The notes under the pieces were generated by a model. That model searched no databases. It saw only the letters and a list, made by a program, of their open reading frames with translations, and was not told the origin of the DNA. A stretch of 64,000 bases of DNA from Emiliania huxleyi CCMP1516 (lineage: Eukaryota): contig NW_005201102.1 of assembly GCF_000372725.1 (NCBI RefSeq), positions 186,001-250,000 of the forward strand, read 5' to 3'. The position numbers were made by a program, and so were the translations under genes. Positions 340 to 61,547 of this stretch are shown here, piece after piece (the stretch's first letter is position 1; each line of letters starts with the position of its first letter).

Positions 340-3300
340 CTACTCGCGGTCGAGGTCGAGGTCGTCGAGGCCGAGGTCGTCGAGGTCGCTCGCGCCCTCC
401 TCGGCGTCGGAGATACTGCTCGCATCCGAGGCCCTCGACGCGTCGAGGTCGTCGAGGTCGTCGAGGTCGAGGTTGAGGTCGTCGAGGTCGAGGTCGCGCC
501 CGGTAAACTTGTGCGTCTGGTCGACCTGAATAGTCCACGTCTTCTTCCCCTTCTCGCCACGCTCGTCCAGCTCTTTGCGCAGCCGCTCCGCGCGGCGGCG
601 ATAGGCATCCCTCAGCAAGGCGGCCTCGGCCTTCATGATCCCATTGTCGTTGAGCTGTAGCGACGTGAGCGTCGAGTTCGATTTGAGCGCGTCGCCCAGC
701 GCGGCGCAGCCGGCGCCGAGCGCGCAGTAGTTCAGCTCGAGCTCTCGCAGCGACGCATTTTTCGCGATACCGGCGGCAAGGTCAGCGCACGCGTCGGGGC
801 CCAGCTTGTTCTCCGACAGGTCGAGCTGCGTCAGCGAGGTGCTCTCGCCGATCGCGCGCAGCGCGGGAGCCACGCCCGCGCTCAACTTGTTGTCGCTCAT
901 CTTGAGGACCTGGAGCGTGGTGTTGCCCCTGAGCGCCTCGAGGACGGCCGCGCCGCCCTCGTCGCCCAGCGCGCAGTCGCTGAGCTCAAGCTCCGTCAGC
1001 GACGTGCTGGCGGCGAGGCCCTTGCCCAGCGCCACGCCGCCCTCCTCGATCAGGTTAGACTGGATGTCAATCCTCTTGAGCGTCACGCTGCTGGCCAGCG
1101 CCTCGCCGAGCGCGTTGGCAGCAGCCGCGTCCAGCTCGTTGCTGGAGAGGTTGAGCTCAGTGAGGCCGCAGTCGCCGACGGCGGCGCAGATGGGCAGCGC
1201 GCCCGACCCCAGCTCGCAGGAGTCGAGCTGCAAGCTGGTGAGCGCCGGGTGGCCTTTCAGGCGCTGCGCCAGGCCCGCGCCAATGTGGGGCCCGCACTCG
1301 GCGCAGGAGAGGTTGAGCGTGGCCAGCGACTTGCAGTCCAGCAGCGGCGGAAGCAGGCCGCTGGCCTCGCCATTCTTCCACTCCTGCGAGGAGAGGTCGA
1401 CGCTAGTGAGGCTCTTGCTGCGCCCCACTGCCGAGGCGATGGCCTTGGCGACGGCTGGGATCTCGGCAGGGCGCATCAACTCGAGGTTGCAGTTGGCCTC
1501 GAGCACCAAGAGCGAGGGCGCGTCCTCGACCATCCTCGCGAGGGCGATCCAGCCCGCCTCTTGCATCGCCGAGTCGTTGAGCTTGAGCGTCTTGAGCCGC
1601 TTGTTCCCGGCGAGCGCGGCGCACAGCGCCGTGGTGCCGTCGGCCAGGATGTAGTTTGCCGACACGTCGAGGCTGGTGAGGCTCGAGTTCTTGGCGAGCA
1701 GCTTACAGAAGGTGCCGAAGTGCGTGCCGTTGTACGCCTCCCGCTCATCTGCGGCCTCGATGCCGCACAGCTTGTTGTTCGACACGTCGAGCTCCGTGAT
1801 CGAGGTGGCGCCCGCGATGCCGTGGCCGAGGTACACCGCGCCTTCCGGCCCCATCTCCTCGCCGCTCGCCTTCAGGCTGTGCAGCGCCTGCGAGCAGCAC
1901 ATGAGCACGGAAAGCGCACCTGCGCCGCCCGCCTTGAGGTTGCTCTTCATCGACCTCACGTTGAGGTCCGAGGCCGACAGCAGCGCCGGCAGGTTGGGCG
2001 CCGCCATCTGCAAGCGCTCCCATCCGTTAGGCAAATCGCTAACCGCGTTCTTCGCCTGCACCGCATCCTTCATTCGCATCAGCATGTTGGCTTCGTTGTT
2101 GTAGTGCTCGGGCGGATGCGACGTCGACTCGGCCAGCATGTCTCGCAGCACGCTCTTCGCATAGCCGGGCAGATCGAAGGCCGCCTCCGCCCCGTCGGTG
2201 AGCTCCCTGAGCTCGGACCACGCCGTCTGCGTCATCTCGTGGGCCAGTTCGAGCTGCATCGACTCGCACATGTCCATGCACAGCTTGCGCCGCCGTGAGA
2301 CGACCTATCAACAACATTTCGACCGCATCGCTCGTATCCGATCGCTCTGACCTCTCTGCCCTCTCGGAGACGACCTGCTCGATGGTCAGCGCGGTGAGGT
2401 TGACCGAGAGGCGCGTCTCGACAACGATGACGCCGCTCTCCACCCTCGTGCCGAGCACCTCGAGTCCCGTCATAGGGGCGAAAAGGATTTCGGACTCGTG
2501 AGGGTATTGGCTCAGCCACGAGAGCGAGGCGCCGCGATCCACCATCCCCATCTGAATCTCGAAGCAGAGACCCGCCCCGCCGCTCCCCCCGTAGTGGAGC
2601 GCCACCTCCTTGTCGAGCGTGGTCGACATGAACGCGAACTCGACGCCGCCCGCGACGTTCCACTCGTTCTTGGCCCAAAACTCGCTCGGCAGCACGCCGC
2701 CGCTCACGCCGCGGTAGACCTTTTGCGCGGTCATGATCTTGGAGAGCTTGACGCACGCTGAGTTGATGATGTGCAGCGTCGTCGTGTAGTTGTTGCCCAA
2801 GCACAGCTGCTCCAGCTTCTGCACAAAAAAGGGAGCCTTCCCGCCCAGGCCGCGCAGGATCGCGTTGTATCTGCGCGCGGGGTCGGAGGAGGAGGGGGGG
2901 TGGGGAGGGGGCTGTGGGCTGGCTGAGTGGGGGGGCTGGGAGCTGGCTGGGAGGTGGAGCCGGCGCAGCGGTGGCTCACTTGATGAACATTGGCCCGGTG
3001 TACAGCCGCGCTCCCCAGAACTCCTCATCGCAGAGCGAGGTGCAGTCCTGCGTCGCAAGCTGCTCGTTGACCCGCTGCAAGTCGATCGCGAAGTCAGAGA
3101 GCGGGCGGGGCTTGCGGCAAAGGCTGCGCGTGTCCTCCCTCTCGCGCAGCTTGGTGTCCTCGGGCCACGGGTGCTTGCTGCCCGGCCCAAAGTCGGTGTG
3201 CTCCGGGTCGACCACGAAGTGATACTCCGTCTTCGCCGTCGTCGTTGTCCCATAGTTGCCCGCGTTGAAGGGGAGCCCGGAATCGGCCGAGTCACAGTGC

Positions 3301-3992
3301 TCCCGCTTCATCGCCTCCCGCAGCTTGGGGTTGGGCGTCCCGATCAGGCCCTCCAGCCCGCCGAAGAAGGTGTCCAGCCCTCCGTACGACATGGTGAAAG
3401 ACTCGCCCTCCTGCACGAACTTTGCGTGTAGCTCTGCTCCGGTGGCGCCGCCCGAGGCGATGAGGGTCGACGCGCCGTCCCAAACAGCGTCGGCGATGCG
3501 GTCGAGCAGGTGAGGACCAGCCTGGCGGAGGAGCGCGGCCACCGACTCGCGTGAGCCGAGCTTACCTAGCGCGCGCACGAAGGGTAGCGCCAGCGATGCG
3601 TCGGCCGAATCGAGCGCCAGTGATGCGTCGGCCGAGATTGGCGAGAGGAGCGCGGCGGCGATGGCGTCGTTCAGCCCGAGTGAGTTTAGCCATTGCCCCA
3701 TCTGCCACTCCTGGCTCGGGTCGCCCTGTGCCGATGGGGCGGCGAGCCTGGCTTCCGCCACGATCCGAAGTATGTCGGCCGACTGCTCCGCCCGCTGGAC
3801 ATCATGGACCAGCTGCATCGGCCCTCGGGCTTGCTTGCTTGCCGCAGAGCCCATCTCCGCGTCGGCCGCATCGTCCTGCCGCTTCGCTATCGCGTCGTCA
3901 AGCTCCGGATTATCTGGCTTCAGCTGCTGTTGCTGCAGCGAGACGGACTTGCTTGAGAGAGAGCCCGGCTTACTTCTGCGGAGCAAGCCCAT
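340..3992 (-). CDS. NAD+:arginine ADP-ribosyltransferase (R-S-E class) domain fused to RNI-like leucine-rich repeats, with an acidic DLD-repeat tail; 3 exons (3992-2980, 2870-2375, 2304-340)
   Basis: Three ORFs join in frame across GT-AG introns 2871-2979 and 2305-2374. ART motifs: LYTGPMFIK/YNAILRG, VYRG, FAFMSTT, SQYPHESEILF. Many LxxLxLsxNxL repeats of ~28 aa follow (e.g. SLTSLDVSANYI, TLTSLQLNDNGI). Confidence 0.85.
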
Positions 3993-4204
3993 CCCTCACG
4001 GCTCTCGTTCGAGCGCTCTTGAAGTTGAGAAGCTGTCGGGTCTGAGTGTCGGGCGATTGCCGAGCAGCCGCATGAATGACACTGTCACGTCCCGAAAAGA
4101 AGAAAAAGCTTGCCCGAATTCCGGCGTTTTTCACATTTCTCGTCCTATTACACTATTAGTACCGTGTGCTCTCGAGAGCCGCATCATGGCTTAAGTCTGC
4201 GGAC

Positions 4205-4355
4205 TAAAAAAGAAAGAAAACAGACTCCAAGTGCCCCAACTCTAGCAGGGATGGGAGGACGGCACGCCGCCACCACACAGGGTTAAGGAGAGGGGTGTGA
4301 TGCGCTAGCCGTCGCCCACCCTTGGGCGTCCGCCTCTTCCTATCTCTCTTCGCAG
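4205..4355 (+). repeat. Dispersed intergenic repeat R1 (SINE/MITE-like, non-coding)
   Basis: GGACGGCACGCCGCCACCACACAGGG...AAGGAGAGGGGTGTGATGCGCTAGCCGTCGCCCACCCTTGGGCGTCCGCCTCTTCCTATCTCTCTTCGCAG is nearly identical to ~19915-20015 and similar to ~48785-48895. A short partial copy lies at ~4878-4940. Confidence 0.85.
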
Positions 4356-4667: not shown

Positions 4668-4700
<33 letters not shown>

Positions 4701-5169
4701 CTCGCCAGACGCCACCGCCGCCGCCGCCGCCGCGCCCTCGCCAGACACGCCGCCGCCCGCCCGCCTCCTCGACCTCCCCACCGATACAATTCCACACAAC
4801 ACGGTTGAATTCTCTTATTCTATGTCGCTGTCGTGGGATCGCTTGTCATGTGAGAGAGTGCGTTGTCTTCTTGAAATAAAGAAAACAGACAACCCAAGGG
4901 AGGGATGGGGAGGACCGGACACGGCACCACGTCGCCACGATCACGAGGGAGCAGTGTCTGCCAGACCCAGCTCGCTCACACGTCACAGCTGGAGAGGGGC
5001 CAGCTCAGTGCATGTGCGTGAGCCGTGACTGCGCCGGTGTGCTGTGAAGTGTGATGAAGCTCCTCGCCTCTCTCGCGCCTGAGAAGGCGTCGGTGAACTG
5101 TGTTTCTTTGTTGTTTTTGCTACTTCGTACTTGCAATCACGAGTGTAGGTTCCCCGCGGCCCGCGCCGG

Positions 5170-5270: not shown

Positions 5271-5289
5271 AGGGTGGGTCATGGCGCGG

Positions 5290-7347
5290 TCATACACTGC
5301 TCACCGTAACACTGCCCCCGTCGATCGAGGAGGACTTGCGGTGCTCGCGCAGCTGCTCCCGGTTATGTGGGAGAGAGAGATGCCAGGTGCGTCGCAGCTC
5401 GCCGAGGCTGCGACGGGTGCGTCTGTCGATCAACAGCGCGAGCCTGGGCGAGAATGGTGCGCGCGAGTGTCGAGACTCGCGCAAGAGGGTGTGTGTGCGC
5501 GGGGGTAGTGGTGGTGGGGTTTGGCCGATTGTTTGGGAGACGCCGAGGGGGGTGCGGTGGGACGCCGCGCACCGTCCTGCCTGCGCCGCGTGTCGCCTCC
5601 ACCGAGACCGCAACGTGAACACCTTCCATGCGTCCATGCACGAGCGCAGCCGCACCGCCGCGCCGGCGCGCAACCGGACGCAATGGCCGACTCCAGACGC
5701 GCCAGCGGCGGCCGCATCAGCGGAGGCCCCGACACCGCCGCCAGCCGCCGCGAGCCCGCCGTCGACAGCGCGTCGCAGCTGCTCATTCTCGTGGAGCAGC
5801 TCCGACAGCGCATCCCACTCCGCCACGCGAGCCTGACGCGAGGGCACGGACGCGTGTCAAGGGGGCAGCTGGTCAGCTGGTCGAGGTGGCCGCTGGTCAA
5901 GGGGGCCGCTGGTCAAGGGGGCCCTCCTCCCGATGCCTCCCTCCCGATTCCGACAGGGAGCGAGCGAGCCTGCAGGAAGGCTCGGCCTGCCATACCTCCA
6001 GAGTGGTCGAATCCAGTGTGGGTTTAGTCCCGTGGGTGGTGCGGTGGCCTGCGAGAAGGCTCGGCCGTCCACGAAGCCGTCGCCGCCGCGCCCCTCCCTC
6101 CCGTCTCGGACCGCTGTCTCGAGTTGCGGCTGCGTCAGTACCTCGACGCTCCCGTCCAGGTACCGCACATGGAAGCGGAGCGCCTGCAGGAAGGCTCCAG
6201 GAAGTGTCTAAGAGCTGTCTAGGAGGTGTCGAGGTACCGCACACGGAAGCAGGACGCCTCTGCCGCACCAGCGGCGACGCCGCCACCCTCGCCGCCGACA
6301 CCCAGCCCGCCGCCGCCGAGCCCGCCGCCGCCCTCGCCTCCGCCGCCGCCGCCGCTGCCTCCAAGAGGCAGCGACAACGTCACCCGGTCCACGACCCTCC
6401 CTCGCGACGCGCTTGCACTCTCTCCTTGAGCCCCGTCCGCCGGGCCGGCACAGAGAGGCCCGCCGCCCGCTCGAGGGCTGCGCGCATCGCGGCTGCTGCT
6501 GCGGCACACCTTTGTGGCGTCGGTCGGGCTGGCGGCTTCCGTCGGGCTGGGCGGCCCACCGCTCGATACGGACGGCCCCTCTTCTAGCCGCAAGGTGGCG
6601 GCGCGGCGCGACCGCTCGGCCTGCCTCTGCTCCCGGTGCGACTGCTCGAGCTGCCACTGGCGCTGCTGCAGGAGGGCGAGCCCCCGCCTACCATACCTCC
6701 ATAGTCTCGAATCCGGTGTGGGTTTAGTCCTGTGGGTGGTGCGGTAGCAGGGTGGCGAGCCCCCGCCTGAGGAGGCTGGAGGAGGCTAGGGTGGGTGGGT
6801 GGAAAGGGGCGGGGCCCGCCGCGAGCGGGCAACACCGCGGGCAGCCAGTGAGGCGGCGGCGGCGGCTTGGGGCTGGAGAGGAGTGCGCGCCGCTGCTGCT
6901 GCCGCCGCTGCCGTCGCTGAGCTTCGAGGTGCTCGACCCGCCTATCGAACCGTAGGGCGTGAGCACGAGAGCACGCCGTTCCTGCCTTCTGTGCGCGGGC
7001 GCCTCTGCGCTCGCAGCACCGCGGCGGTCGCCTCAAGCTGCCGCCGCCAGAGCTCGTGTCGCTGGCTGTCGACACTCGCACTCAAAGATTGCGCCGCCGC
7101 CGCCGGCGGCGGCGGCGGCGGCTGTGTGACCGGTTTAGGCGGTGCTGCCGCCCGACTGGCGGCGGCGGCGGCGCGCTCGGCAGCCGCCGCATCACGCCGC
7201 ACCGCCTCGCGCCGCACGGCAGAGCAGTGGTGCTCTCGGGCAGCAGAGTCTGACGACGCCGTCGAGAGTCCACGCCGCTCGAAGCACCTCGCCTCCGTCG
7301 AGGCAGCCCGAGTCCCTCGAAGCTCCCGATAGCGCTCCAACGCCATT
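5290..7347 (-). CDS. Hypothetical multi-exon low-complexity/coiled-coil protein; ends approximate
   Basis: ORF pieces join across predicted GC-AG introns 6688-6766, 6184-6257 and 5987-6065 (...SLLR/RGLALLQQRQWQLEQSHREQRQAER...; ...AAE/ALRFHVRYLDGSVEVL...; ...ARVAEWDALSELLHENEQLRRAV). No recognisable domain. Confidence 0.45.
5990..6044 (-). mobile_element. Introner-like ~55-nt element, family A, copy 1 (in predicted intron 5987-6065)
   Basis: + strand CCATACCTCCAGAGTGGTCGAATCCAGTGTGGGTTTAGTCCCGTGGGTGGTGCGG, flanked by a ~20-nt exon duplicate (gcctgcaggaaggctcggcc / gcctgcgagaaggctcggcc). Confidence 0.75.
6691..6744 (-). mobile_element. Introner-like element, family A, copy 2 (in predicted intron 6688-6766)
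   Basis: + strand CCATACCTCCATAGTCTCGAATCCGGTGTGGGTTTAGTCCTGTGGGTGGTGCGG, flanked by the duplicate ggcgagcccccgcct. Confidence 0.75.
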
Positions 7348-8680: not shown

Positions 8681-9001
8681 CCCACCGCCCTGCCCCCCCT
8701 GGAATCGTGGTATGCCAGCGAGCGACCCGTCCCTTGCCCTCTCTCGCCCTTGCTCTTCCTCTCCCCCTCCATGCCCCCCCCCCCCCCTTCGCAGTAGGGC
8801 CCATGCCCCTCAACAATGTTCAGGATGAAAAAAGAACATAAAAAAATAAAGTTTTTAAAACAACAACCGCGCGACAGAATTCTTTTATTCCTCAGCGTAA
8901 AATTCTTTTATTCCACCACAGCCCGGCGCCAAACGGCCCGGCCGCTCGCCGGAGCCGGAGCGCCTGTCCTCCGCGCGCCTCGTCGCCCCCGGGCGGCTCC
9001 C

Positions 9002-12000
9002 ATGATCCAGGCCGGCCAGCGGTACAAGCTCTCGGGCCTGGCCGCGGCGCACCTCAACGGCAAAACGTGCAAGATTCGGCGGTACGACGAGGAGAAGAAG
9101 CGGTGGATTGTGGACCTGGATGCGGATCTCGAGAAGAACAACGATGCGCCAAAGGCGCTCCGCGCGGAGAACCTCAAGCCCATCACCGAGCCTCCGCTCG
9201 GAGGCCCCTCCACCCCTCCGCCAGCCGCAGCGCAGCCATCCGTTGCTCCGTCGGCGGTGGCGGGAGGAGGGGGAGGCGCGGCGACGACGCCGACGCAGAC
9301 GGGCGCGGGGCTCTCAGCGAACGAGCCCACCGAGATCACGGGCGAAGAGTTCCGGCGTAGCGTCGCGGCGAAGGCCAGCATGGCGCCTCCGCTGACGCCG
9401 CCGTCGGCGGTTGTGGGCGCGGGCGGCGCGGCGGCGCGAGGCGGCGCGCCAGCCGCCAAGCGACGGGTGGTGCCGACAGTGGTGCCGACGGCCTCGGCCG
9501 CGGCCGCGGCATCGGTCCCAGCACCGCCGCCCGCCGCCTCTGCCGGTGGCGATGCTGCTCGCGTGGCGGGCTGCTCCAGGGTCGCTGCTGCTGCGAGGAG
9601 CCCCGCCTCCGTCTCCAACATGGACTTGGACGAGGAGGAGGAGGGGGAGGAGGAGGAGGAGGAGGAGGAGGGGGAGGAGGAGGAGGCTGCGAGCGAGGAC
9701 GGGGATGCGGCCGACGGCGCGCCTCCTCGGCGCGCCGCCGACGAAGCAGGGCGCGAGGTGCCGCTATGGGGAGATGTGGGGAGACGTGGGGAGATGTCGG
9801 GAGGGCGCGAGGTGCCTCGCTAGCCGCATCTCAGCTGCACTGCCAATCCCGCCGCCGCCTCCTCCTCCTCCGCCTCCGCCGCCGCCACCGCCGCCGCCAC
9901 CGCCGCCGCCGCCGCCGCCTCCACCGCCGACCCCACCCAGCCCGCCACCACCCTCCTCCCCGCCTCCCTCCCCGCCGCCACCCTTTCCGTCCGCACACCA
10001 CCGCCCCCGCCACCCCTCCTCCCCGTCCGCCCCTCCTCCCACTCCGCAGGCGCTGGTCCGGCGGCTTCTCGACGCGCAGAACCGGGAGCGCGAGCTCGCG
10101 GCCCTTCTCGAGGACGGCGCCGTCGGACGCGCCCTCGGCGACGATGACGGCACCGGACGCCTAGAGCCGGACGCCTAGAGCCGGACGCCTGGAGCCGGAC
10201 GCCTGGAGCCGGACGCCTGGAGCCGGACGCCTGGAACCGGGACGCCTAGACGCATGTCTTCCAACCCGCGCCCGAGAGGGCACGGACTCCGCTGCATCTC
10301 CCCACACCTCCGCTGCATCTCCCCATCTCCGCCACATCTCCGCTGCATCTCCCCGCATCTCCCCACATTTCCGCTGCATCTCCCCGCATCTCCCCGCATT
10401 TCCGCTGCATATCCCCGCATCTCCCGCATCTCCCGCATCTCCCAGCATAGGCTCCGGAGTCTCGGCCGAGAGGCTCAAGGCGGAGGAGCGGCTCCTCGCC
10501 GCCGCTGCAGACGAGGCCGCCGAGAAGGCGCGCGGCTCTACCGCCGAGCAGATGCTGCGCGACATGGAGGCGATGGCGTCCGGCGGGGGGGCGGCTGTCC
10601 CTCCGGCGGATAGCGGGCGGGGGGGCGGCGCGGCGTCGTCTGCGGCGGACGACGAGGAGTACTCGCCGGCGGTTGCGGCGGCGGCGGGCGAGGCGCTTGC
10701 TGCGGAGGTTGCCGGGTGGCGTGTGGAGTATGACGAGGCGCTCGAGCTGGTGGCCGAGCTGGAAGATGCGCTCGAGGCGAGAGGCGGCCGAGAGACAGCC
10801 GAGAGGCGGCCGAGAGACAGCCGAGGGACAGCCGAGGTGCGGCCGAGGGACAGCCGAGGGACAGCCCGTGTCCCCCCCCCCCCCCCCCTCCCGCCCAGGC
10901 GTCGGGCGTGTCGATCCTCGAGTTTGAGAGGGCGGCCGCCGCCGCAGACGCCGACGGCGGGTTCGGCGAGGGCGGCGCCTCGCAGGAGCCGCCCGCCGCA
11001 GACGCCACGCCGCGGTGCGAAAAGTGCCGCGCGCGACCGGCACTTTCCCTTGCGGCCGGCGGCGGAGGCGGCGGCGGCGGCGGCGGCGGCGGAGGCGGCG
11101 GCGGCGGCGGAGGAGGCGGCGCTGACAGGGCGCGGCCGCAGTCGCTTTGCTGGGTGTGCTCGGCGGACGCGGAGCTGGACGAGCGGCGTCCGCTCAAGTC
11201 GAAGCACGGGCAGAAGCAGGCGGCGGGCGCGTCTGGGTTCACCGGGTGGACCGCCGGCCTCCGCCGCACCGCCGACGCCAGGGCGCTCAAGCAGATGTAC
11301 AAGGTGGAGCGGCCGCAGCAAATCGGCAGGCTGGCGCCGCTGCTGGAGGACGAGGAGACGCTCGAGGTAGACGAGCTTGCGTCGGAGGGGGAGGGGGAGG
11401 AGGAAGAGGAGGGGGGGCGGCCCGCCAAGCTGCCGCGCCTCTTCTCCCACGCGCGTGCGCGCGCGCGCGCTGCGAGGGCGGCCGATGAGGAGTCCCTTTC
11501 GGGCGACTCGTCGTCCGAGGGCGAGGGCGGGCTCGGCGGAGGCGGAGGGCTTTCCGAGGCGAAGCTGGCGCGCGCGTGGCGGGAGGAGCTCAGGCACGAG
11601 GCGGAGGGTGGCCGCCGGCTGGCGCCGCGCGTGCGGAAGGGCGGCCACGACGCCAGGGCGGGCTCGCTGCTGCAAAAGTGCTCGGTCTGCCGCCACCCGT
11701 TCTTCGAGTGCGCGCAGGTGTACGCGCACCCGCAGCTCGGCGTCCCCCTCTGCCACTACTGCCACGAGGCGGTGGTGGAGGAGGAGGGCGGCGGAGGCGG
11801 CGGCGGCGGCGGCGACAGCGCGATGCCGGAGGCGCCGCCAGCCGCAGCAGGCGAGGGCGAGGAGGGCGCGGCAGAGGAGGAGAACGAGGAGGAGGAGGAG
11901 GTGGGGGAGGTGTGCGTGTGGTGCGCCGGGCTCAACCACACCGGTGGCGGCGAGGGCGGCGAGCCGGACGTCTTCCTCAACAACATGCTGCGAGCCGCGT

Positions 12001-15000
12001 CTCTTCACACCTCCTGCTGTGAACAGGCGAGCCGGACGTCTTCCTCTGCGACGCGGCCGGCTGCGGGCGGGCGGTGTGTGAGCGGTGCATCCGCTCCAAC
12101 TTGGGAGGCGAGGCGGCCGACGCAGTGCGCGAGGCGGAGCCGTGGCTGTGCTATGTTTGCGAGCCGGCGCCGCTCGCCCGTCTCGCCAAGCGATGCGCCG
12201 CGCTCGTCGCGCGGCGCAACAAGATCTCGCTCAAGCGCAGCCGCCGCGAGGCTCGCTGGCATGCGGCGGCCCCCGCCGGTCGCGGCGTGTCCGACCTCCC
12301 CTCCCGCGCCTTCACCTCCTCCCAAGACCTCGACGACGTCGACGACGCCGCCGCCGGGGGCGCCGCCCTGCCTGCGGGCGACGGCCGAACGGGCGGCGAC
12401 AGCCGAACGGGCGGCGGCGGCGGCGGCGCGCGCGCAAAGTCCGCCGCGGAGCTGGCACACGAGGCGCAGGAGGCGACGGCGGCGGCGATCGCCGCCGCCG
12501 CGGCGGAGGAGGAGGAGGAAGACGCGCGGGCGCGCGTCATCACGCTGTGGGCGGCTCGTGGCGAGGCCGGCGCGGTGACGGTGCTGCCGCGGCTGGCGCG
12601 GCAGCTCAAGCCGCACCAGGAGGAGGGCGTCCACTTCTTGTGGGGGGCGTGCTTCGGCTCCAAGCGGGCTGACAATGCGAAGCGGCGCGAGCACGGGTGC
12701 GTCCTCGCGCACTCGATGGGGCTCGGCGAGACGTTTGTTTGCCTCCTCCCCGCCCCGCCCCCCCCCCCCCCCTCTTCACACCTCTCCGCTGTGAACAGGC
12801 AAGACGCTCACCGTGATCTCCTTCCTCCACACCGCCCTCACGCGCGCTCGCACGGTCGAGGGGCGCTTCTACGCGCAGATGGGGCGCAACGCGGCGGTGG
12901 CCTAGTGCCCGCCGACGGCGGTCCTTTAGTGAGCAGCGTCTCTTCACACGTCTAGCCGTGAACAGGTGGCCGACGGACCGCCGACGGCGCTGGTGCTCGT
13001 GCCCAAGAGCGTCGCCACGCAGTGGGAGAGCGAGTTCGGCAAGTGGCTGCTCGACCAGTGCGGCAACCAGGCCGCGAGCAACCCGAGGAACCTCCGCTGG
13101 CAAAAGTTCCCCGACGCGGGCGCGCTCAAGCGGTCTCACTCGGGAGACGGGCGCGGCGGCGGGCTCGAGCAGCAGCGGCTGCAGGCGCTGCGCCGCTGGC
13201 GGAGGGAGGGCGGCGTGATGGTGATGGTGCACGACACGTACCGCTCCGTCCTCTCTTCCGCAAAGAACGACGGCGCGGAGCGGCAGGCGCGGGCGGCCGC
13301 CCAGACGGCCGCTGCCGCCGGCAGCGCCTCCGAAGCGTATGGCGGCACGAACGGTGAGGCCGTGGCGGCCTTCAACGCGGCGGTGGCGGCGGCGCAGGCC
13401 GCGCGCGCCGCAGCGGACGCAGCGGGGCAGGAGAGGGAGCGAGAGCTGGCGGAGTACCGGCGGCTGCTGCAGGACCCCGGTCCGGACGTCCTCGTGATCG
13501 ACGAGGCGCACGTGATCAAGAATGAGAAGAACCAGCTGCGCGCGGTCCTCGCCGGCGTGCGCACGATGCGGCGCGTGTTGCTGACGGGGACGCCGCTCCA
13601 AAACAACTTGCGCGAGTACTTCCACATGGTGGACTACGCGTCGCCAGGTTCCCTCCTCTCCTCTTCTCTTCTCTTCTCTTCTCTTCTCACATGGTGGACT
13701 ACGCGTCGCCAGGCGAGCTCGGCGACCTCGACACCTTCAAGAGGCTGTACGAGAGCACCATCACCGACGGCCAGTTCCGGTACGGCGAGGACGACGACGA
13801 GTCGCGCTCGCAAAGGGCAAAGACGCGGCGCGAGGTGTGTCCGAGCCACTTCCGGCACACTTCCGGCACACCTGCCGGACACTCCCTAGGCAAAGAAGCG
13901 GCGCAAGGACATGTCCAAGCGTATCTGGGCCCTCACGCGCAAGCTCGACAAGCTGGTGCAGCGGCGGGGCGTCGAGGTGCTGCAGCGCGACCTGCCGCGC
14001 TCGCAGCAGTACGTGATGGTCCTGCGGCCGACGCCGACGCAGCGCGCGCTCTACAACGCCAAGGTCGAGTCGATGGCCGGGCGGCAGCAGCTCTTCGAGT
14101 TCATGACCGACATGCTCCGCATCTACAACCACCCCGCGGCCCTCCTCGACCCAAAGACGCTCGCCCCGAACGCCAAGCTCGTCGCGAAGGCCGCCGCCGC
14201 CGCCAGCATCGACGCCGCCGCCGCCGCCGCCGCCGCCGGGGCCGCCGCCGGGGGCGCGCCGTCCCCGCACTTCCCGCCGGCCGCGCCGGCCGGCGGCGCG
14301 GGGGTGGGGGTGACGTGGCTCGAGCGGGCGTGGCCCGCCTCGCGGCGCGGCAACCCTGCGGCTGCCTTTGGCCCGGAGGTGTCGTCGAAGGTCGCGGTGG
14401 CGCTGGCGCTGCTGCAGCAGGCGGCGCGCGCGGGCGAGCGCATCTTGCTCTTCTCGCAGTCGCTCGAGTCCCTCGACGCGCTGCAAGTGGCGCTCCGCTA
14501 CGCGCCCTCGCCCCGCCGCGCGCGCGCGGCCAAGGCTTTCTCGCCGGGCGGCCCGCCGCCGCCGCCCTCGCCGGGCGACGGCGGCGAGGGCGGCGTGGGG
14601 TGGCAGCCGGGCCTCGACTACCTGCGCCTCGACGGCAAGACGTCGGGGGACGAGCGCGACGGGATGGTCAGGCTGTGAACGGCGTCTCTTCACACCTCAC
14701 GCTGTGAGCAGGTCGGGGGACGAGCGCGACCAGATGGTCAAGCAGTTCAACGCGCGCGACTCTGCGATCCGGCTCTTCCTCATCTCGACCAAGGCGGGCG
14801 GCCTCGGCCTCAACCTCGCCTCTGCCTCGCGCGTGATCCTCTTCGACGCCTCTTGGAACCCGTCGTCGGACGTGCAGGCCGTCTTCCGCGACACTTCCTA
14901 GGCACTCCCTAGACACTTCCTAGACGCCTCTTGGAACCCGTCGTCGGACGTGCAGGCCGTCTTCCGCGCCTACCGCTACGGCCAGCGGCGGACGGTCTAC

Positions 15001-16434
15001 GTGTACCGCCTCATCGCGCAGGGCTTCGAGGAGTGCCTGTACCGGCAGCAGGTGGTCGAGCTGCAGCTCGCAGGACAGACACGCCGACGGCACGTCGCTG
15101 ACACGTCCCTCACGCGTGTGTCCCCCTCCCCCCCTCCCCCCCCACGTCCCGTAGGTGGTCAAGCTGCAGCTCGCCGGCCACATCATCGACGACACGCACG
15201 CGGAGGCGATGTACACCGAGGAGGAGCTCAAGGCGTACTACGCGCCGCTCCCCGCCGTCGACGCGGTTGCCGGCGCGTCCGACGCCTCGCGCCCCGGTGC
15301 CTCCCCCCCCCCCCNNNNNNNNNNNNNNNNNNNNNNNNNNNNNNNNNNNNNNNNNNNNNNNNNNNNNNNNNNNNNNNNNNNNNNNNNNNNNNNNNNNNNN
15401 NNNNNNNNNNNNNNAGAAGGCCCCGGGAGAAACAAAGATAGGGGACGGGCATGAACAATGGTAAATGCAATGGGGCAAAGAGGCTGCTGGAACTATAGTC
15501 GAACAAGACAATTCAGGTTTTGAAAAGAGGTTTCATGTAAAGAAACCTTATGTGCCATCTCTGCCAGCCCGCCTCTCCCTCCTCCCACCCCCTTCCGACC
15601 CGACCGCCTGCCTCACGCCGCGCCGTGCCGCCAGGCGCCGACCTCGCGACCGAGTCGTGGCTGCCCGCGCTCGCGCAGAGCGGCCAGGTCGGCCCGCTCC
15701 TCGCGTCCGTCGAAGACCACGACGCGCTGCGGCTCGGCGAGGCAGAGGAGCTGCTCACCGTCCGCGAGATGGAGGACGCCGCCAACGAGCTGCTCGAGGC
15801 GAGCCTCGACCAGCCGCGCGACCTCTACTTCTCGGACCTTTCCTAGACCTTTCCTGGAAGCTTCCTGCAGGCGAGCCTCGACCAGCCGCGCGACCTCACC
15901 TTTTGCGACAAGTGCAACGCGCAGCTGCACAAGCTCTCGTACAAGCAGTTTGGCTACCGCTGCGGCCAGTGCGGCCACGACGGCCTCGTGCCGCCGGCGC
16001 CGCCCGTGGTGACGCGCAACGACCCGACCACCAAACTGGCCGTCGAGCCGCGTTCGATCACCTGGAAGCTGCACGGCGAGTCGGGCGACAAGAGCGCGAT
16101 CAATACCACCGTGCTCGCCACGGGCGGCGCCTACCACGTGCAGTGGCGCGTCGCGCCCGTCGACGAGGAGGGCAATGCGCTGCAGCTCGGCGAGAACGAG
16201 GGGTGGACCGACGCCAAGAAGCCCATCAGCGGCGGGCGGCTGATCGCCAAGAAGCAGATCGACCACACGGTCGCCTACCAGGCCCGCGTGCGCGCGCGCA
16301 TGAGCGCCTGCTCGTGCTCGCTCTCGAGCACCCCGCTCGCGTTCGTCACCGAGTGCCGGTGCCCTTGGACGCCGTGGTCGCCTCCGTCCGTCAAGGCGAC
16401 GCCAACCGCGCCCGACGAGGAGCCGGCGGCGTGA
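9002..16434 (+). CDS. ATRX-like SNF2 chromatin remodeller: N-terminal SH3/KOW-like module, ADD zinc finger, SNF2 ATPase and HELICc, C-terminal Zn-ribbon and FN3-like domain; about 13 introns; spans an assembly gap
   Basis: ADD: CSVC...HPQLGVPLCHYC...CVWC...VFLCD...CGRAVCERCIRSNLG...WLCYVC. Helicase motifs after splicing: LKPHQEEGV, LAHSMGLG/KTL, VIDEAHVIKN, LLTGTPLQNNLREYF, LLFSQSL, YLRLDGKT, FLISTKAGGLGLNL, FDASWNPSSDVQAVFRAYRYGQ. Predicted introns: 9758-10049, 10150-10450, 10777-10898, 11959-12026, 12726-12798, 12897-12965, 13648-13712, 13817-13889, 14642-14711, 14878-14955, 15052-15154, ~15297-15634, 15799-15870. Confidence 0.9.
15315..15414. other. Assembly gap (100 N)
   Basis: Run of n characters after a poly-C tract. 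Confidence 1.
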
Positions 16435-19841: not shown

Positions 19842-19874
19842 CAGACCCCCTGTTCAGGTAGGAGGCGGAACCCA

Positions 19875-20113
19875 AAAAAGAAAGAAAAAACCGACAACCC
19901 AAGGGAGGGATGAGGACGGCACGCCGCCACCACACAGGGATTTTAAGGAGAGGGGTGTGATGCGCTAGCCGTCGCCCACCCTTGGGCGTCCGCCTCTTCC
20001 TATCTCTCTTCGCAGTCTCTCGCAGATTCTCGCTGCGACCTTCATGCCACCTCGCGGTCGCCCCCTTCTCGTCGTTCTTTCCCTTGTCTCTTCTTCTTCT
20101 GTCGCGTCGCTCT
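19875..20113 (+). repeat. Dispersed intergenic repeat R1, long copy between divergent genes
   Basis: Colinear with 48744-48995 from AAGAAA...ACAACCCAAGGGAGGGATG to TCTGTCGCGTCG. Confidence 0.85.
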
Positions 20114-20185
20114 CCTCTGCTTCGTTCTGCGGAACCCAGAGGTGGCATCCATGGTTTCCTCTTCATTTTACCATTCAAGGCGCAA

Positions 20186-28295: not shown

Positions 28296-28341
28296 CGCAA
28301 CGCCGCCGTGGACCGCGTGCCGCTGCAACCTCGGTGCGGCC

Positions 28342-35823: not shown

Positions 35824-35949
35824 GGCGGCGGCGACGACGGAGGGGGAGGGCTTGGGGGCGGCACTCGGTGGCGCAAGCGCGACTTTTTTTGTGTGATTTG
35901 GGCTGCATAGTAAAATTCTTTTGCTGAGGCTAATATATTAAGAATTCTT

Positions 35950-36222
35950 TTTTATAATGAACTCGGGGGCACGGGACGCGGCACAAACGGGGCACAAACG
36001 CCAGGCTAAAAAGACGGGGAGGCACGTAGTGACGCAGGGGAGTCTAGGCGACGGACGGCGGCGGGCGTCCTCCGACGCCGCGGCGAGCCTGAGCTCGGTC
36101 GCAATCTCTTCCGCCGCCGCGAGCTGCAGCGCGACTGACATGCGCTGGGCCTGCAGCGACAGCCACGACCGCGTCGACCAGCTCGCCTCGTCCTCGTGCT
36201 GCCGCTTCGAGAGCTTTTGCTG
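35950..36222 (-). mobile_element. 5'-truncated non-LTR retrotransposon-like relic: ORF C-terminus, R2 3' segment and A-rich tail
   Basis: Reads QQKLSKRQHEDEASWSTRSWLSLQAQRMSVALQLAAAEEIATEL, then the R2 repeat, then GAGTTCATTATAAAAAA. QRxSVALQ-like helices end RLE-type non-LTR ORFs. Confidence 0.55.
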
Positions 36223-43276: not shown

Positions 43277-43668
43277 CAGCCACCGGACAACCATTAGTCT
43301 AATGGGAGAGGATGACCTGTCCTGTGGTGAGTCCGGTGTCTGTGTGACCCTTGCCCAGCCCCCGCCTTCGTTAGTACTACTACTTTTAGCTTAGCTCTCT
43401 CTCGTTGTGTCGAGCCTGTCTGCTGTGAGAGAGAGTTCTTTTGTTTAAACTCTCTCGTTGTAAAGTCGATCTTGTCAACACCAGCGGGCCGGATGATCGG
43501 GATCGGGCTGCGCAGGGCAGAAAGAAAGAAACAGAATCACAGGGGGAAGAAAAGGGGAATCTTGTCCGTTCCCTTCTAGAAAAAATTCTTTTTACCTGGC
43601 CGTAAAATTCTCTTTTTCAGAAATCCAACGCCCCGCCGGCGCGACCGGCGGAGCACACAAACACACAT

Positions 43669-48491: not shown

Positions 48492-48743
48492 GGTAATGGC
48501 GCGCGAAATGACAGGAACTAGAGCAAATGGGGGGGCGGACTTCAGCTGGGTCCTTTTGTGGCTCTTTCTTTTCTTCGTCAGGCGGATTTCTTTCTTGCGG
48601 AAGTCGTCTGTCGTTAATCGTCAAGGAGAGAGAAACATGGAAGCTGCCTCTCTCACAGCGGCACACTGGCACAACAAAGGGTGTGGACTGGCGCACCCTT
48701 TTCCACTAGTACACTAATCGGCACACCACCGGAGCCGAGGGCA

Positions 48744-48995
48744 GAAGAAAGAAAGAAAACACACAACCCAAGGGAGGGATGGGAGAACGGCACGCCGCCA
48801 CCACACAGGGATTTTAAGGAGAGGAGGGTGTGATGCGCTAGCCGTCGCCCACCGGCCACCCTGGGGAGTCTGCCTCTTCGTATCTCTTTTCGCAGTCTCT
48901 CGCCGCTTCTCGCTGCAACCTTCATGCCACCTCGCGGCCGTCCCACTCTCGTCGTTCTCTCCCTTGTCACTTCCCCCTCTGTCGCGTCGTTCTCT
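48744..48995 (+). repeat. Dispersed intergenic repeat R1, long copy between divergent genes
   Basis: Colinear with 19875-20113 and 4205-4355. Confidence 0.85.
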
Positions 48996-49066
48996 GGGGG
49001 CTGAAAATTCCTCCAAAAAATTCTTTCTCGCCGCCAGGGACAAGACGCGGCGGCTGCGCGTCAGGC

Positions 49067-56208: not shown

Positions 56209-56635
56209 AAAGTGCTATAAGAAGAGAGGGGGAGGATAGACAGTATATGATAGATGCGATCGCCAGCTAGGCGCCCAAGATAGAGGCCCATTCCGAATAG
56301 CGAATTAATTAACAGCTGTTGAGAGAGATTCTTCTCTCTCTGTCGCAGCTGCCTATCTGGAAGGCACCGAGAGGTACAAAATGGCGCAAATGGTCAAAAT
56401 CAAAGTTTTGTAACGCGAGCTGTGCCACAGTGAAATGGAACTAGCCTTTATCATCCGGGTGCACGCGGTGGGTCTGGACTTTCCTGACACGCGACGCCCC
56501 CGAATGCTGCAAGAGACGGGGGCAATTTAGCGTGAGAGGCCCGCCCAGACGGCTCGGCGGCATCGGGCGCCCGACCCGCGGCGCGGGACGCGGCGGGGAC
56601 AGGAGGGCGAGCCCCGCGGCGTTGTCCCCTCCCCT

Positions 56636-59600
56636 CTAGTCGGTCGCCTCCTCCTCGGCGAGGCGCGCGGCGAGGATGGCCTTGGCCGTCGCCTATTCTC
56701 CGCCAGCTGTCGGTTTCTGCGCGAGTTCTTCTTGTCGCGCCAGCTCTGGTCTTAAGCGTCGCCTCCATGCAGAGCGCCTCCTGCTCGTCCTTGACGCCGC
56801 ACCTAAAAAAGAAAAAACAGGTCCGAAAAGGAATACAGCGCCCCCTGCTCGTCCTTGACGCCGCACATCTTTGGGAGGAAGGAGTCGTCCTCGAACTGCG
56901 CGACGCCGAACGGCGCGAGCCTGCAGTGTGAATGCGCCAGCACTAACTAATTAATCAATTAAGTCGTTTGACGGGCGCGAGCCTGCAGTGTGAATGCGCC
57001 AACACCATCGGGGCGGGGCGACGGCAGGGCGCAGCGTCTCCAGAGCACCGCGAGAGTGAGAGCGATGCGAATACCGCGAGCACGGCTCGACTACTACGTG
57101 TCCTCTCGAGCGCGACGTGGCATGCAAGAAGACGTCTTCCGCTTCTCTAAGCGGCGCGAGCCCCGTTCGCGCGACGCGGCCGAGATATGGGGAGATATGG
57201 GGAGATATGGGGAGATATGGGGAGATATGGGGAGATATGGCGCGAGCCCCGTCCGCGCGACGCGGCCGACGAACTGCCGCAGCGTGTTAGCCGAGTGGTT
57301 GGCGATGAAGTCGCGGTCGACGAGCACCTGATGGAGAGTGAAATGAGTGAATGAACTAGCTCGTGTCGTTTGAGCGCGAGGACGGACGACATCGGAGGGG
57401 CGACCTGCTCGTACTCTCGGGTACTCTCGGGTACTCTCGGGTACTCTCGGGTACTCTCGGGTACTCTCGGGTATCCTCGGGTACTCTCGGAGGGGTGGCC
57501 TGCGCAGAAACAAGGGAGGCGACTCTGTCCTCCGACGCCTCTCCGAGGTGGTGGCCGACGCTACATCGACGAGCACCGACGTGCAGGGCACGTTGGCGCC
57601 GTACGTGAAGTCCTTGGTCACGCCGCAGACGGCGAGCGCGCCCTTCTCCATCTGGTCCGCGACGTAGTTTGTGTAGGCGATGTCGCCCTTTGGGTTGAGC
57701 GACGGCTCGAGCGGCATGTGCGCCGCCACGCCTACCGACAGGGGGCATGGCGACGCTCGGGGCTCCCTTCCTCTCGGCTCGAGCGGGCGTGTGCGCTTCC
57801 GCGCCCGAGAGGAGCAGCGAGCGCCACGTGTCGTCCACCGGCAGCGAGTCCACCTTTTTGAAGTCGCCGGTCGACGGCACCGACCGGTAGAAGGCGCCGT
57901 CGAACTGGTTGACCATTTGCGGCGCGAACTTCTTGAGGTGCGCCTTGGAGTGTTGTCGACGCGGGCATGAGTGAGAAAGAGTGCGTGGCTGCTTCTGAGG
58001 TGCGCGCCTTGGAGTTGGTCGACGCGGGCAGGAGTGAGAAAGAGTGAGTGCGTGGCAGCTTCTTGAGGTGGCAGCGCCTTGGAGTTGACAACGCAGTCCT
58101 CGGGGATCTTGAGCAGACCCGACGACTCGGAGAGGCCTACAGACACGGACGTCTCGACGCTGCAGGAGCGAGACCCTGTGCGGGCAGCGGCGGGAGAGGG
58201 GGGGGGTGCGAGGACCCATGTCGCGCAGCTTCGCGGCGATGATCTCCTCGACGCGGTCCTCGCCCCCCTTGACCTGCGAGAAAAAGAATTCTTTTGGCGA
58301 GGGAGAGTCTCGACGTCCCACCTCGGTTTCTGTGCTCAGAGTGTCGTGACCTTCTCCGCCTCCTTGCGGATGTTGCTCATCACCTGATTCAGTCATGCAA
58401 TCAATAGACTCCATTCAATACACGTCCTTCATTCGCAGCTTGCGGGCATGTGGGACATCACCTTCTCCGCGGCGGCCTCCTCCGCTTCGAGGTCCTTGTT
58501 CAGCTTCTTGAGCGACGGCATCTCGGCGATCAGCGCCTAGAAGACAGAACCCCGCCCACCAATCTTTCTTTTTTCTTCGTGGGCGGCGGCATCGCGGCGA
58601 CCCGCGCCCCGGACTGCACCATGATCTGCTTGTGCGGCTGCGCGGACACGGTGAGCGTCATGCCGGGGAAGTGGTGCGCGTTGCCCAGCAGCAGCTGCTC
58701 GGTCGAGTACGGCGGGAAGATCGCCTTCTGCATGTTCGTCGACGGCGTGCAGAAGGCCTTGATCAGCGCCGCGTCGCCGCACTCGCACAGCGTCTGGAGC
58801 ATGTAGCTCGCATAGTGGCGCAGCGTCGAGTGCGACAGCTTGGACAGGTCCGAAAAGTGGTCGTCCACCGCCGTCACCGTGAAGCCCGCCCGCTGAGCGT
58901 GCGCCGCGACGTCCTCCTCCTCGAGCCGGTCCTACAAGAACAAGAGACGGCGCGCGCTGCCTTGCAGGCGCGGCGTGTGGCGCCCGCGCGGCTCGTGAGA
59001 TCCGCTCGCGCCTGCATCGAGACGATCGCCTGCGCGGTGTACGCCTTGAGCAGCAGCGGCTCGACCTGGAGGCGAGGTCACCCGAGATCGCCCGAGATGG
59101 CCCGAGATGGCCCGAGATGACCTTGAGCAGCAGCGGCTCCACCTTGAGCCGCCCCACGAAGTCGGCGAGCGCTTGCGCCGGCTCCTCGGCCTCGGCGACC
59201 ATCGAGTGCGGCAGCGCGACTTGCCCATTCGCCTTGACGAGCAGGACGCCGACGTTGAGCTGCATCGACACGAGCTCGGCGACGCCGTCAGCGTCCTCGA
59301 CGATGTTGAACCGCTCCTTGACGCAGTAGCAGCAGCAGTGAGAATGATTATCACTCCCGGTGATGATTATCATCACTACTGGTAGTGATGATGTTGATCC
59401 GCCCCTTAGTAGCAGCGGCAAGAGGACGGATCATAGTGCTGCTGGTAATAACGATACTGATGATCTCGATCCGCTCCTTGAAGTATCCAATCGGCGTCTG
59501 CAGGTACGCGGCCGCCGGCAGCGTCGCCGACATCCAAACTGTCTTATACGGCGCCTGTGGACATGTCTCGGACATGTCCCGGACGTGTCCCGGTCGCCGC

Positions 59601-59938
59601 CTCTCCAGCCCTGTGTCTTGTGCGCGCGTCGAGCATGCCCGACACCATCGCATGCGTGAGCGTGCCTGGCCCGAGCGCCTGCCCGCCGCCCTGGTCGGCG
59701 CCCATCGTCGGCTCGTCGATGATGAGCACCGTCTTGTGCGGGTCCATCTGCATCGAGAGCCAGGAGCAGGACGCGACGTCCGTCACGAACATGCGCGGCG
59801 GCCGAATCACCTGCGCGCCGACTCCGTGGTGAATCCGCTGGCCAGTCCTCTCATTGGCTGCTTGGGCACGAGCCGCCGATCACTACTAGACTGCTCGCCT
59901 GCCTGACGCTGGCACCATTGCCGCTGCTGCTGCTGCTG

Positions 59939-60014
<76 letters not shown>

Positions 60015-61547
60015 TGCTGCTGTTACTGCTGCTGCTCGCCTGCACGTGCCGCTTGCGCGCGCGCTGGTTCGAGAGGCCGCCCGTGGTCTCCTGGATCCGC
60101 TCCACGCCAAGCCGCAGCTTCTCCTCCATCTGAGCCTAGGAGACAGGACCTCGCCCGCCTCGGAAGGAGGAGACGCCGCGGTGTCGCCGCTCGCCCCTCC
60201 GTCGTCTGTGCCATCGAGTTGGAGGTGGAGGAGCCGCGCAGGCCGCACAGCCAGGAGCAGGTGATCTGCTGGTTGTGCACCCACGCGAACGGGATCCCCA
60301 TGTTGTACAGCGTCTGGGCAACCTCGAGGTTGACGCGGCGCGCGAGGCAGCAGAAGACGACGCGGTGCTCGGGAAACAGCTCCGGCAGCGCCGGCGCGAG
60401 CGACGTCTTCCCCGTGTCGGGGGGCGATCGGAGGAGGACGAGCTGAGGCCCGGGCCGCGCGACCGCCTTGAAGAGCTGCACTTGGGAGGGGTACGGCTGC
60501 AGGAACTTGGACGCGTGCCGAGCCTTGAACTGGGACGAGGAGAGCAGCGCCGGGTGCTTGCGCAGGCACCTAGTACCATACCCCCACAGTATCGAATCCA
60601 GCGTGGGTTCAGTCCCGCCGGTGGTGCGGCAGGCACTTGTGCACTGTGAACTTGACCTTGACCTTGAGCGAGGCGAGGACGTGGCGCGCGTCGGCGAGGA
60701 TCTGCAGCGGCGGCAGCTCCTCGACCCCGTACCGCATCTTGTACTGCGTCTCGAAGATGACCACCGCGTCCGCCAGGTTGCGCACCGTCTTGTAGCGCGC
60801 CTCCTCCGAGTCCTTGTCGCCGTCGCTCTTCTTCTTGGCGAGCTGGCCGGCGGCGGTGCCCATCTCCTTGGCGAGCTGGAGCTCCCACGGCGCGTCGAGC
60901 ACCAGGTTCTTGCCCGGCTCGAGCGCCTCGAGCCAGCCCACCGCCCGGTCCCCAACCTGCACCTTTTTGAGCGTGTTGGACTTTGCCGCCTCGCCGTTCA
61001 TGATCCGCATCACGTTGTCAATCTTGATCTGCGTCTTGGTGTTGACGCCGCCGCCGCCGCCGCCCTTGCCGCCGCCGCCGCCCTTTTTGCCGCCGCCCTT
61101 GCCGCCGCCGCCCTTCTTGCCCTTCTTGCCCTCAGCGGCCGCCTCCTCTGGCAGGTCGAGCGGCAGCGCGGCCAGCTTCGGCCGGATGTGCGTCTTGTAG
61201 CACCAGGAGGCAAAGTCGTCCATCTCGGCGAGCATGTCGCCGAGGAACTTGCCGTTCGAGTCGTCCAGCTGCATCTCGCCCTTGGTGCGGATCTGCGAGC
61301 ACGCGCGCCGCAGCATCTCGGCGACCGTCTTCTTCTGGTACGAGAGCGCCGCCTCGATGTTCTTCCACTCCATCTTGTTGACCGAGTCCATGAGCAGGTC
61401 CGACGCGCCGAACCCCTCCGGCTCGGCCTCCGGGTCCGCGGCCGGCGCCGGGGGAGCGCTGCTGGAGGCGGCGGCGGACATTGTCGGCTGGTCGTCGCGC
61501 GAATGAGACGACGCGGGCTGAGACTGAAAAGAGAATTTGCTCGTCAT
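56636..61547 (-). CDS. Multi-intron superfamily 2 (Ski2-like) helicase; start at 61547 or 61481
   Basis: Motifs in order: LQPYPSQ (Q), SPPDTGKT (I), VVFCCLARRVN (Ia), IIDEPT (II), WMSATLP (III), TKDFTYGANVPCTSV (V), LRQFVGRVARTG (VI). Terminal exons join through introns 56921-57247, 56803-56866 and 56693-56762 to TAG at 56636-56638. Confidence 0.8.
59922..60035. repeat. (CTG/CAG)n microsatellite inside a predicted helicase intron
   Basis: About 37 near-perfect ctg units. Confidence 0.95.
60576..60629 (-). mobile_element. Introner-like element, family A, copy 4 (in predicted intron 60570-60636)
   Basis: + strand CCATACCCCCACAGTATCGAATCCAGCGTGGGTTCAGTCCCGCCGGTGGTGCGG flanked by the duplicate gcaggcac. 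Removal restores FTVHK/CLRKHPALL. Confidence 0.8.

Follow-up and report, generated by a model that had tools for sequence, protein, structure and literature searches.

Introns composed of a flanking-exon copy and a filler in a 64-kb stretch of the Emiliania huxleyi genome

Apart from bursts of introners, it is still debated how most new introns arise. We examine here a stretch of 64,000 nucleotides of the haptophyte Emiliania huxleyi CCMP1516 (contig NW_005201102.1, positions 186,001 to 250,000 of the forward strand; hereafter the window). A reading made from the sequence alone had proposed that, in several of its genes, introns consist of a duplicate of the neighbouring exon sequence plus a filler, and that they were gained in mass by a mechanism different from that of introner transposons. 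Our analysis reveals that the pattern stands well above controls and that, where RNA covers them, the segments are spliceosomal introns, since they are removed from RNA at GY/GA..AG ends (Y being a pyrimidine). A duplicate-and-fill process, probably a form of DNA break repair, is likely to have produced these introns in large numbers.

Each of the 14 examples initially listed begins with GT or GC, ends with AG and shows a repeat on the diagonal that corresponds to the length of its intron. The longest duplication is perfect over 46 nt (14845-14890 = 14923-14968), other perfect repeats extend over 26 nt (13623-13648) and 21 nt (11958-11978), and the resemblance is weak in two of the listed examples: in 56693-56762 it is perfect over 8 nt and has 4 mismatches over ~18, and in 21101-21164 it covers 13 nt with 1 mismatch. 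A scan of the window for repeats (17 of 20 matches, low-complexity sequence excluded, ankyrin gene at 61600-63450 left out) found 24 loci at offsets of 60-85 nt, as against 0.65 +/- 0.85 (maximum 3) in 20 block shuffles; four longer offset bands of the window gave 4, 1, 2 and 3 loci. Part of the 24 loci are coding repeats rather than introns (1860, 20207, 39958, 47567). Single units keep to a narrow length, 64-79 nt in 22 of 23 cases, which is the range announced for most of these introns, although their copies vary between about 9 and 46 nt; only this narrow total length is used here, because the correlation between copy and filler lengths (rho -0.79) is largely built in. The claim that at least seven unrelated genes are concerned holds clearly for six: in two further genes (near 45475 and 49981) the copies, judged by eye, are short or decayed. 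Introns are unevenly spread across the window, with 17 in one gene, ~13 in an SNF2-like gene and none seen in several others.

The gene carrying 17 introns (56636..61481, reverse strand) was chosen for an unbiased test, in which every intron was defined from protein alignment and none was picked by eye. Spliced alignment gives a product in which 796 of 796 residues are identical to the transcript-derived protein P0001. A junction-anchored exon copy scoring at least 8 is present in 11 of the 17 introns, compared with 0.7% of intron/exon swaps, so that the direct exon repeat above swapped-control background that characterizes Daphnia-type double-strand-break repair is found here; none of 100 000 permutations reached the observed sum of copy scores. 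The copied part is mostly the downstream exon, at the 5′ end of the intron (mean score 7.8 versus 2.0 at the 3′ end). The first 845 coding nt of the gene are free of introns. The product itself, 953 amino acids (aa) with a P-loop-like motif, is a conserved haptophyte protein of ~950-1000 aa in which no Pfam family was matched.

Splicing is documented by RNA contigs from two runs bearing different organism labels: between 56500 and 59880 all 14 of 14 introns are skipped, and one loose end is compatible with a fifteenth. In the SNF2-like gene, relative to the window, one RNA contig lacks 142 (=73+69) nt over one intron pair and 138 (=65+73) nt over another, which accounts for four more introns by length arithmetic; this evidence consists of contig pieces placed at 90% likeness in repeat-swamped data, where depth peaks over fillers were not taken as copy numbers. 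The RNA-supported set is thus the region 56500-59880 plus these two pairs, and the introns at 2305, 6184, 14878, 15052, 15799, 21101 and 35274 are predicted ones. In DNA, introns are found unspliced in contigs of runs X2, X4, X7 and X8 and in L027 and L035, two loci of the window's own species.

Among the single-unit introns of the test gene, 56803-56866 (64 nt, GT-AG; RNA and protein) is made of a 30-nt exon copy with 1 mismatch and a 34-nt AT-rich filler. RNA also supports 59066-59142 (77 nt; 22-nt copy and 10-mer satellite filler), 58537-58607 (71 nt; 33-nt decayed copy with 6 mismatches), 57732-57804 (73 nt; decayed copy of ~20-30 nt), 58384-58461 (78 nt; 8 nt perfect, ~16 decayed, AT-rich filler) and 56693-56762 (70 nt, GC-AG; 8-nt perfect copy across the junction, decayed beyond), for which the RNA joint runs from 56694 to 56837 with 8 letters between. 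A protein match defines 60570-60636 (67 nt; 8-nt copy and a filler of family A, described below) and is the sole basis for 60136-60211 (76 nt; weak copy). Resemblance is restricted to 6 nt in 58274-58350 (77 nt) and to 4 nt, beside a 10-mer array, in 59555-59627 (73 nt), and no copy was detectable in 58137-58215 (79 nt) and 58932-59011 (80 nt), all four being seen in RNA.

The five long introns of this gene are stacks of units. The largest, 56921-57247 (327 nt, skipped as such in RNA), comprises an original unit to which later duplications were added over both junctions, the one at the 5′ junction containing a 10-mer array. Intron 57328-57576 (249 nt; RNA) starts with an 11-nt perfect exon copy and consists of three adjoining GY..AG units of 77, 95 and 77 nt, with no exon between them, and is a candidate for recursive splicing. 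Two tandem units with 12 nt identical across the junction form 57944-58077 (134 nt; RNA), two units (72+88) with 11 nt identical across the junction form 59317-59476 (160 nt; RNA and protein), which is an RNA-confirmed GA-AG intron, and 59811-60039 (229 nt; RNA loose end at 59814, and protein) has a CAG array and its own 5′ junction repeated internally. The process thus appears to re-hit existing introns at their junctions. One duplicate-plus-filler unit of 62 nt (56912-56973), a 32-nt repeat of the intron tail and exon start, has no counterpart in one contig of run X2, which is DNA by an automatic guess and keeps the neighbouring introns, and is present in X7 and in the window; the single-copy allele of X2 reflects either an insertion elsewhere or a precise deletion. 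Because this unit duplicates intron tail together with exon, its template was unspliced.

The origin of the splice sites follows the proposed rule, namely that the duplicate usually provides the donor and the filler the AG. In the test gene, 14 of 17 introns have as donor the dinucleotide that opens the following exon, against 7.2 on average in permutations (p 0.0009), and the AG comes from the filler in most cases; in 14878-14955 and 15799-15870 both splice sites come from the duplicate. Donors in the test gene are 9 GC, 7 GT and 1 GA, and in its coding sequence GC is three times as frequent as GT (GC/(GC+GT) 0.75).

The SNF2/ATRX-like helicase gene (8983..16433, forward strand; ends set by eye, N gap at 15315-15414) has an exon 100% identical over 97 aa to the E. 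huxleyi protein P0046, in which Pfam recognizes SNF2-rel_dom. Removal of eight introns leaves a single open frame over 11841-15310 and, as had been noticed from the sequence, restores the conserved motifs HSMGLGKTL, DVFLCD and DGKTSG. RNA length arithmetic supports 12726-12798 (73 nt; 9-nt copy) and 12897-12965 (69 nt; 25-nt decayed copy), both with a filler of family B, and, together with the open frame, 13648-13712 (65 nt; 26-nt perfect copy of the upstream exon, supplying the AG) and 13817-13889 (73 nt; 20-nt copy). For the latter, the public model P0046 places the donor further downstream, leaving an intron of 55 nt, but the length of the RNA contig fits 73, not 55. Family B is again the filler in 11959-12026 (68 nt; 21-nt copy; diagonal repeat and open frame) and in 14642-14711 (70 nt; 29-35-nt copy), where an RNA piece stops at 14641 and a DNA contig spans the copy. 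The open frame argues for 14878-14955 (78 nt; the 46-nt perfect duplication, with both splice sites inside) and 15052-15154 (103 nt; 22-28-nt copy), and the diagonal repeat for the predicted intron 15799-15870 (72 nt; 29-nt perfect copy). In other genes, introns predicted on the reverse strand are 2305-2374 (70 nt; 10-nt copy; intact in 3 DNA runs), 5987-6065 (79 nt; ~20-nt copy and family A), 6184-6257 (74 nt; ~30-nt decayed copy), 6688-6766 (79 nt; 22-nt copy and family A), 34499-34573 (75 nt; 15-nt perfect copy and family A, in a gene for a pyridoxal-phosphate (PLP) enzyme, threonine-synthase-like according to Pfam) and 35274-35346 (73 nt; 25-nt copy and 10-mer satellite), and on the forward strand 21101-21164 (64 nt; 13-nt copy). 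Removal leaves an open frame for the predicted introns at 2305, 14878, 15052 and 35274.

Family A occurs in 4 introns of 3 genes, always in sense orientation, with a core of 54-56 nt, 80-91% identity and both ends conserved. The 4 copies of family B all lie in the SNF2-like gene; they end at a fixed AG, and their opposite end is fuzzy. In agreement with the variable duplications of 8-46 nt announced earlier, the flanking repeats differ in length within each family: 8, 15, 20 and 22 nt for A and 9, 21, 25 and 29 nt for B. A target-site duplication (TSD) of fixed length within a family, the mark of classical DNA-transposon introners, is thus displayed by neither, and introners in the broad sense of a multi-copy family at unrelated sites amount to 8 introns only, out of ~40 catalogued. 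The remaining fillers are unique or satellites, the latter being built of 9-11-mers in both orientations. Terminal inverted repeats (TIRs), of which no obvious case had been noticed earlier, were not seen in family B; the ends of family A show a weak inverted match, 7 of 10, and its folding is not above that of shuffles (z +0.65 to -1.29), with a double change in 1 of 17 pairs. No Rfam family was matched in the window and no poly(A) tail was found on the fillers, which terminate in an intron-like AG. Heterogeneous fillers fit repair, yet they are not one-off, several of them belonging to recurring families (A, B and the 9-11-mer satellites). Filler motifs were also looked for in viral contigs, in four scans with 0, 1, 0 and 0 hits; the single hit, L037, proved to be a chance match to unrelated AT-rich sequence.

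Homologues of the test gene come from haptophytes. We found 36 orthologous loci, of which 19 were spliced-aligned; the other 17 are uninterrupted, possibly transcripts, and stayed outside the analysis. Two calls, of 38 nt in L023 and 92 nt in L031, were discarded as alignment artefacts, and the tree was built by a quick method with Shimodaira-Hasegawa-like approximate likelihood-ratio test (SH-aLRT) support only. For 17 positions in nine distant lineages, none of 88 position-by-lineage comparisons in this gene revealed an intron position in common with the window, the nearest misses being 415, 416 and 419 versus the window's 417, and two long genomic contigs matching a Chrysochromulina protein have no introns over 972 aa. 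That distant relatives lack these positions agrees with the intron gain first proposed, and the segments appear lineage-specific in the one gene tested; they would thus have been gained on this branch by something. As the comparison covers one gene and distant relatives, the gain is placed on a long branch.

The same copy anatomy exists in 7 of 23 introns of other haptophyte lineages (3% in swaps). Five of the 23 consist largely of telomere repeats (L025:51-121, 614-691 and 866-992; L026:802-883; L028:8147-8268), the filler expected of a telomerase-filled break, and four of them adjoin a flanking-exon copy; in one telomere-repeat intron of these loci the two orientations meet head to head. Gephyrocapsa (Emiliania) huxleyi has TTAGGG telomeres (10.1101/2024.05.26.595999). 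The sister loci L025 and L028 (SH-aLRT 100; third-position identity 0.74) have the intron site at aa 442 in common (L025:51-121, L028:8147-8268), which from sequence comparison may reflect either parallel gains or renewal of the copies after the intron was born. Another site, aa 608, is common to L025:614-691 and L021:2390-2496, which are not sister lineages, and is absent in L028, a distribution that suggests parallel gain; both sites lie at AG|GY. In the sister loci L021 and L022, introns 1485-1552 and 1450-1552, respectively, are one codon apart (aa 415 and 416), by sliding or by independent gain.

We favour break repair with long re-copying of the target and a templated filler as the origin of these introns, with a probability of roughly 0.55. 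Repair of a break in a transcribed gene would copy 8-46 nt of the target a second time and patch the gap with 30-60 nt of filler, probably templated from other introns or satellites. Exact removal would be possible when the copy begins with GY and the filler ends with AG, or when the copy holds AG|GY. Units below ~64 nt would not be spliced, so that survivors would pile up at 64-80 nt, and since donors would be recruited from GC-rich exon copies, GC would become the majority donor. The same event would re-hit existing introns, and recombination between repeats would double, renew or delete units. In related haptophytes the frequent telomeric filler points to end-joining with fill-in by reverse transcriptase. 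Break repair covers the variable copy length, the mixed fillers, the stacking and the telomeric form. What is shown directly is the anatomy, the splicing, the presence in DNA, the absence in distant orthologues of one gene, the filler families, the stacking and one polymorphic unit.

Several observations nevertheless weigh against this explanation. Six of the 17 introns of the test gene have little or no copy. No whole intron is absent in any DNA at hand (14 of 14 present in L027 and 7 of 7 in L035, and likewise in pieces from X2, X4, X7 and X8); the predicted intronless allele with a single un-duplicated copy was thus not found among these few genotypes, the nested 62-nt unit being the only segment seen to vary. 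Families A and B, always sense and with one fixed end, look as expected of a copy-paste element. All 24 repeat loci fall inside genes, as drawn by hand, and none in the ~20.7 kb of other DNA, and nested units sit on splice junctions, which random break repair does not predict; this strict genic location and these nested units favour a transcription- or RNA-linked step. The comparison of positions spans one gene, and no close outgroup was found. Telomeric filler is absent from the 64-kb window. Finally, the copies at the common site of L025 and L028 have 0/25 and 0/19 mismatches to their own exon, and 5/25 and 4/19 to that of the other. Copy decay therefore does not simply date the birth of an intron, and the age gradient proposed from perfect and decayed duplicates is unsafe, the long introns being in addition stacks of later junction units.

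Because the fillers recur in families, a copy-paste element is a live rival. Non-autonomous introners could be moved by an enzyme making variable duplications, either a Replitron-1-like HUH transposase or a non-long-terminal-repeat (non-LTR) retrotransposon using target-primed reverse transcription at the 3′ ends of introns. This accounts for the conserved ends, single orientation and variable repeats of family A and for the fixed and fuzzy ends of family B, which has the pattern of Replitron-1 (one orientation, which splicing may impose, fixed end, fuzzy end, variable TSDs); putative Replitrons exist in two haptophytes (PMC10288648) and ~5% of classified introners are non-LTR (PMC12130899). 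We still find it unlikely, as the two families leave most of the catalogued introns, unique or with satellites in either orientation, unexplained, and as the folding, Rfam and poly(A) results for the fillers give it no help. An origin at the RNA level, a model named in PMC3443670, seems to us quite improbable: while copying a transcript, a reverse transcriptase would jump to the 3′ portion of a second intron, return, and yield a cDNA that recombines into the gene. The strictly genic loci, the confinement of family B to one gene, the resemblance of filler ends to 3′ splice sites, present even when the AG comes from the copy (14878, 15799), the junction-anchored nested units and the intron-free start of the test gene all speak for it, but satellite fillers occur in both orientations, the polymorphic unit requires an unspliced template, and the gene at 340-3993 has both its introns in its 5′ half.

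The introns might also be older than their copies, junction duplication or conversion overwriting the ends of ~70-nt introns, in which case a copy would record renewal rather than birth. The sister loci with site 442 and copies matching their own exons fit this well, as do a total length that is constant regardless of copy length, stacking in 5 of 17 introns and the lack of whole-intron polymorphism. We consider it very doubtful, since positions are lineage-specific, simple introns of 64-80 nt consist of one copy and one filler, and Daphnia often shows parallel gains at AG|GT (43 of 90; PMC4202315). As to an assembly artefact or chance similarity, the genome is GC-rich and repeat-rich and our comparison relies on contigs, not on long reads. 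Independent DNA contigs, however, span the repeats, which excludes an artefact for the introns covered, RNA removes them, and shuffles and swaps give far fewer; we grant this explanation practically no chance.

Break repair of this kind has a precedent. Staggered-break gain is already published for Daphnia pulex, so the kind of mechanism is known: there, new introns are flanked by repeats of the adjacent exon end, with nested secondary events and parallel gains (PMC4202315; PMC3443670). The Daphnia repeats measure 4-12 bp (33 cases among 90 gains; PMC4202315) versus 8-46 nt here, in about two thirds of the introns of one gene, and the fillers here come from recurring families, or are telomeric in relatives. 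Introners and introner-like elements (ILEs) of the Aureococcus type, of Polarella and of Chrysochromulina resemble our introns in that they carry one splice site and co-opt the other, or both, from the duplication, and in their GC/GA donors, internal families and mass gain. In those elements the TSD has a length, between 3 and 8 nt, that is constant for each family, and family members are alike from end to end, whereas our duplications differ in length inside one family and the majority of fillers belong to no family; fixed 3-8 nt TSDs are described for the ILE classes of the dinoflagellate Polarella (10.1101/2020.10.14.339549) and 4-bp TSDs without TIRs for a Chrysochromulina family (10.1101/2022.06.06.494994). 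The suggestion of a non-introner mechanism thus stands in so far as the duplications misfit fixed-TSD introners and break repair is the best guess; it is weakened by the published Daphnia precedent and by the copy-paste rival. The Chlamydomonas elements Replitron-1/N1 share a fixed end, a fuzzy end, variable TSDs and one orientation, but their length is in the kilobase range, they bear terminal direct repeats of 6 bp and have an RG target (R being a purine), and they are not reported as a source of introns (PMC10288648). Tandem duplication of an AGGT-containing exon (PMC3443670) likewise gives both splice sites, as in 14878-14955 and 15799-15870; unlike in that model, foreign filler always separates the copies here and the AG is mostly in the filler. 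Telomeric insertions at breaks, which sometimes duplicate the target (PMC2246262), and the pervasive interstitial telomeric sequences of Calcidiscus (PMC13518057) recall the telomeric filler between duplicated target in L025, L026 and L028, but what we could consult of these papers does not describe them as introns, and such filler does not occur in the window. We found no account of the pattern in E. huxleyi; the 2025 introner survey does not name haptophytes in its main text (PMC12130899), and our search did not extend to the 2013 genome paper or to the supplements of the introner surveys, where families from E. huxleyi may be listed.

Other features of the window were noted in passing. A motif of A-run, ATTC and T-run lies just upstream of several genes (~8875-8910, 25587-25657, 35910-35950, 43580-43615, 49000-49025), possibly as a promoter element, and once inside an intron (58283-58295). 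The gene at 33160-35823 (reverse strand) is a single open frame for a threonine-synthase-like PLP domain and a C-terminal half that may resemble ornithine cyclodeaminase. That at 340-3993 (reverse strand), with no introns in its last 1.9 kb, presumably encodes an ADP-ribosyltransferase-like stretch followed by leucine-rich repeats. A dispersed non-coding repeat (~4200-4340, 4870-4910, 19870-20120, 48740-48990) is probably a transposon end, and depth in DNA runs is very high at 4.2-5.6 and 7.5-8.9 kb. Polyketide-synthase-like fragments (carrier, crotonase-like and thioesterase-like, by eye) at ~28300-32200 have no duplicate-plus-filler units.

Clear break-repair gains are few, 5 in the table of PMC3443670, and the footprint described here is long, frequent and testable in a cultured bloom-forming alga with many genomes. 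Screens for introners that rely on similarity between introns would miss most such introns. The pattern also offers a reason for failures of gene models at intron borders: the public P0046 retains part of one copy. In E. huxleyi 56-65% of donors are GC, which PMC4028052 attributes to GC content; this proportion would also result if donors were drawn from exon copies. More tentatively, prymnesiophytes may possibly have in common a gene-targeted, transposase-free intron factory, in which breaks in transcribed genes would be healed by a long re-copying of the target and a filler that is reverse-transcribed or templated; the filler would consist of intron tails and 10-mer satellites in E. huxleyi and of telomere repeats in certain other lineages. 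Such a factory would have built most introns of these genomes, would renew junctions and stack recursively spliced units, and would have made GC the majority donor in E. huxleyi.

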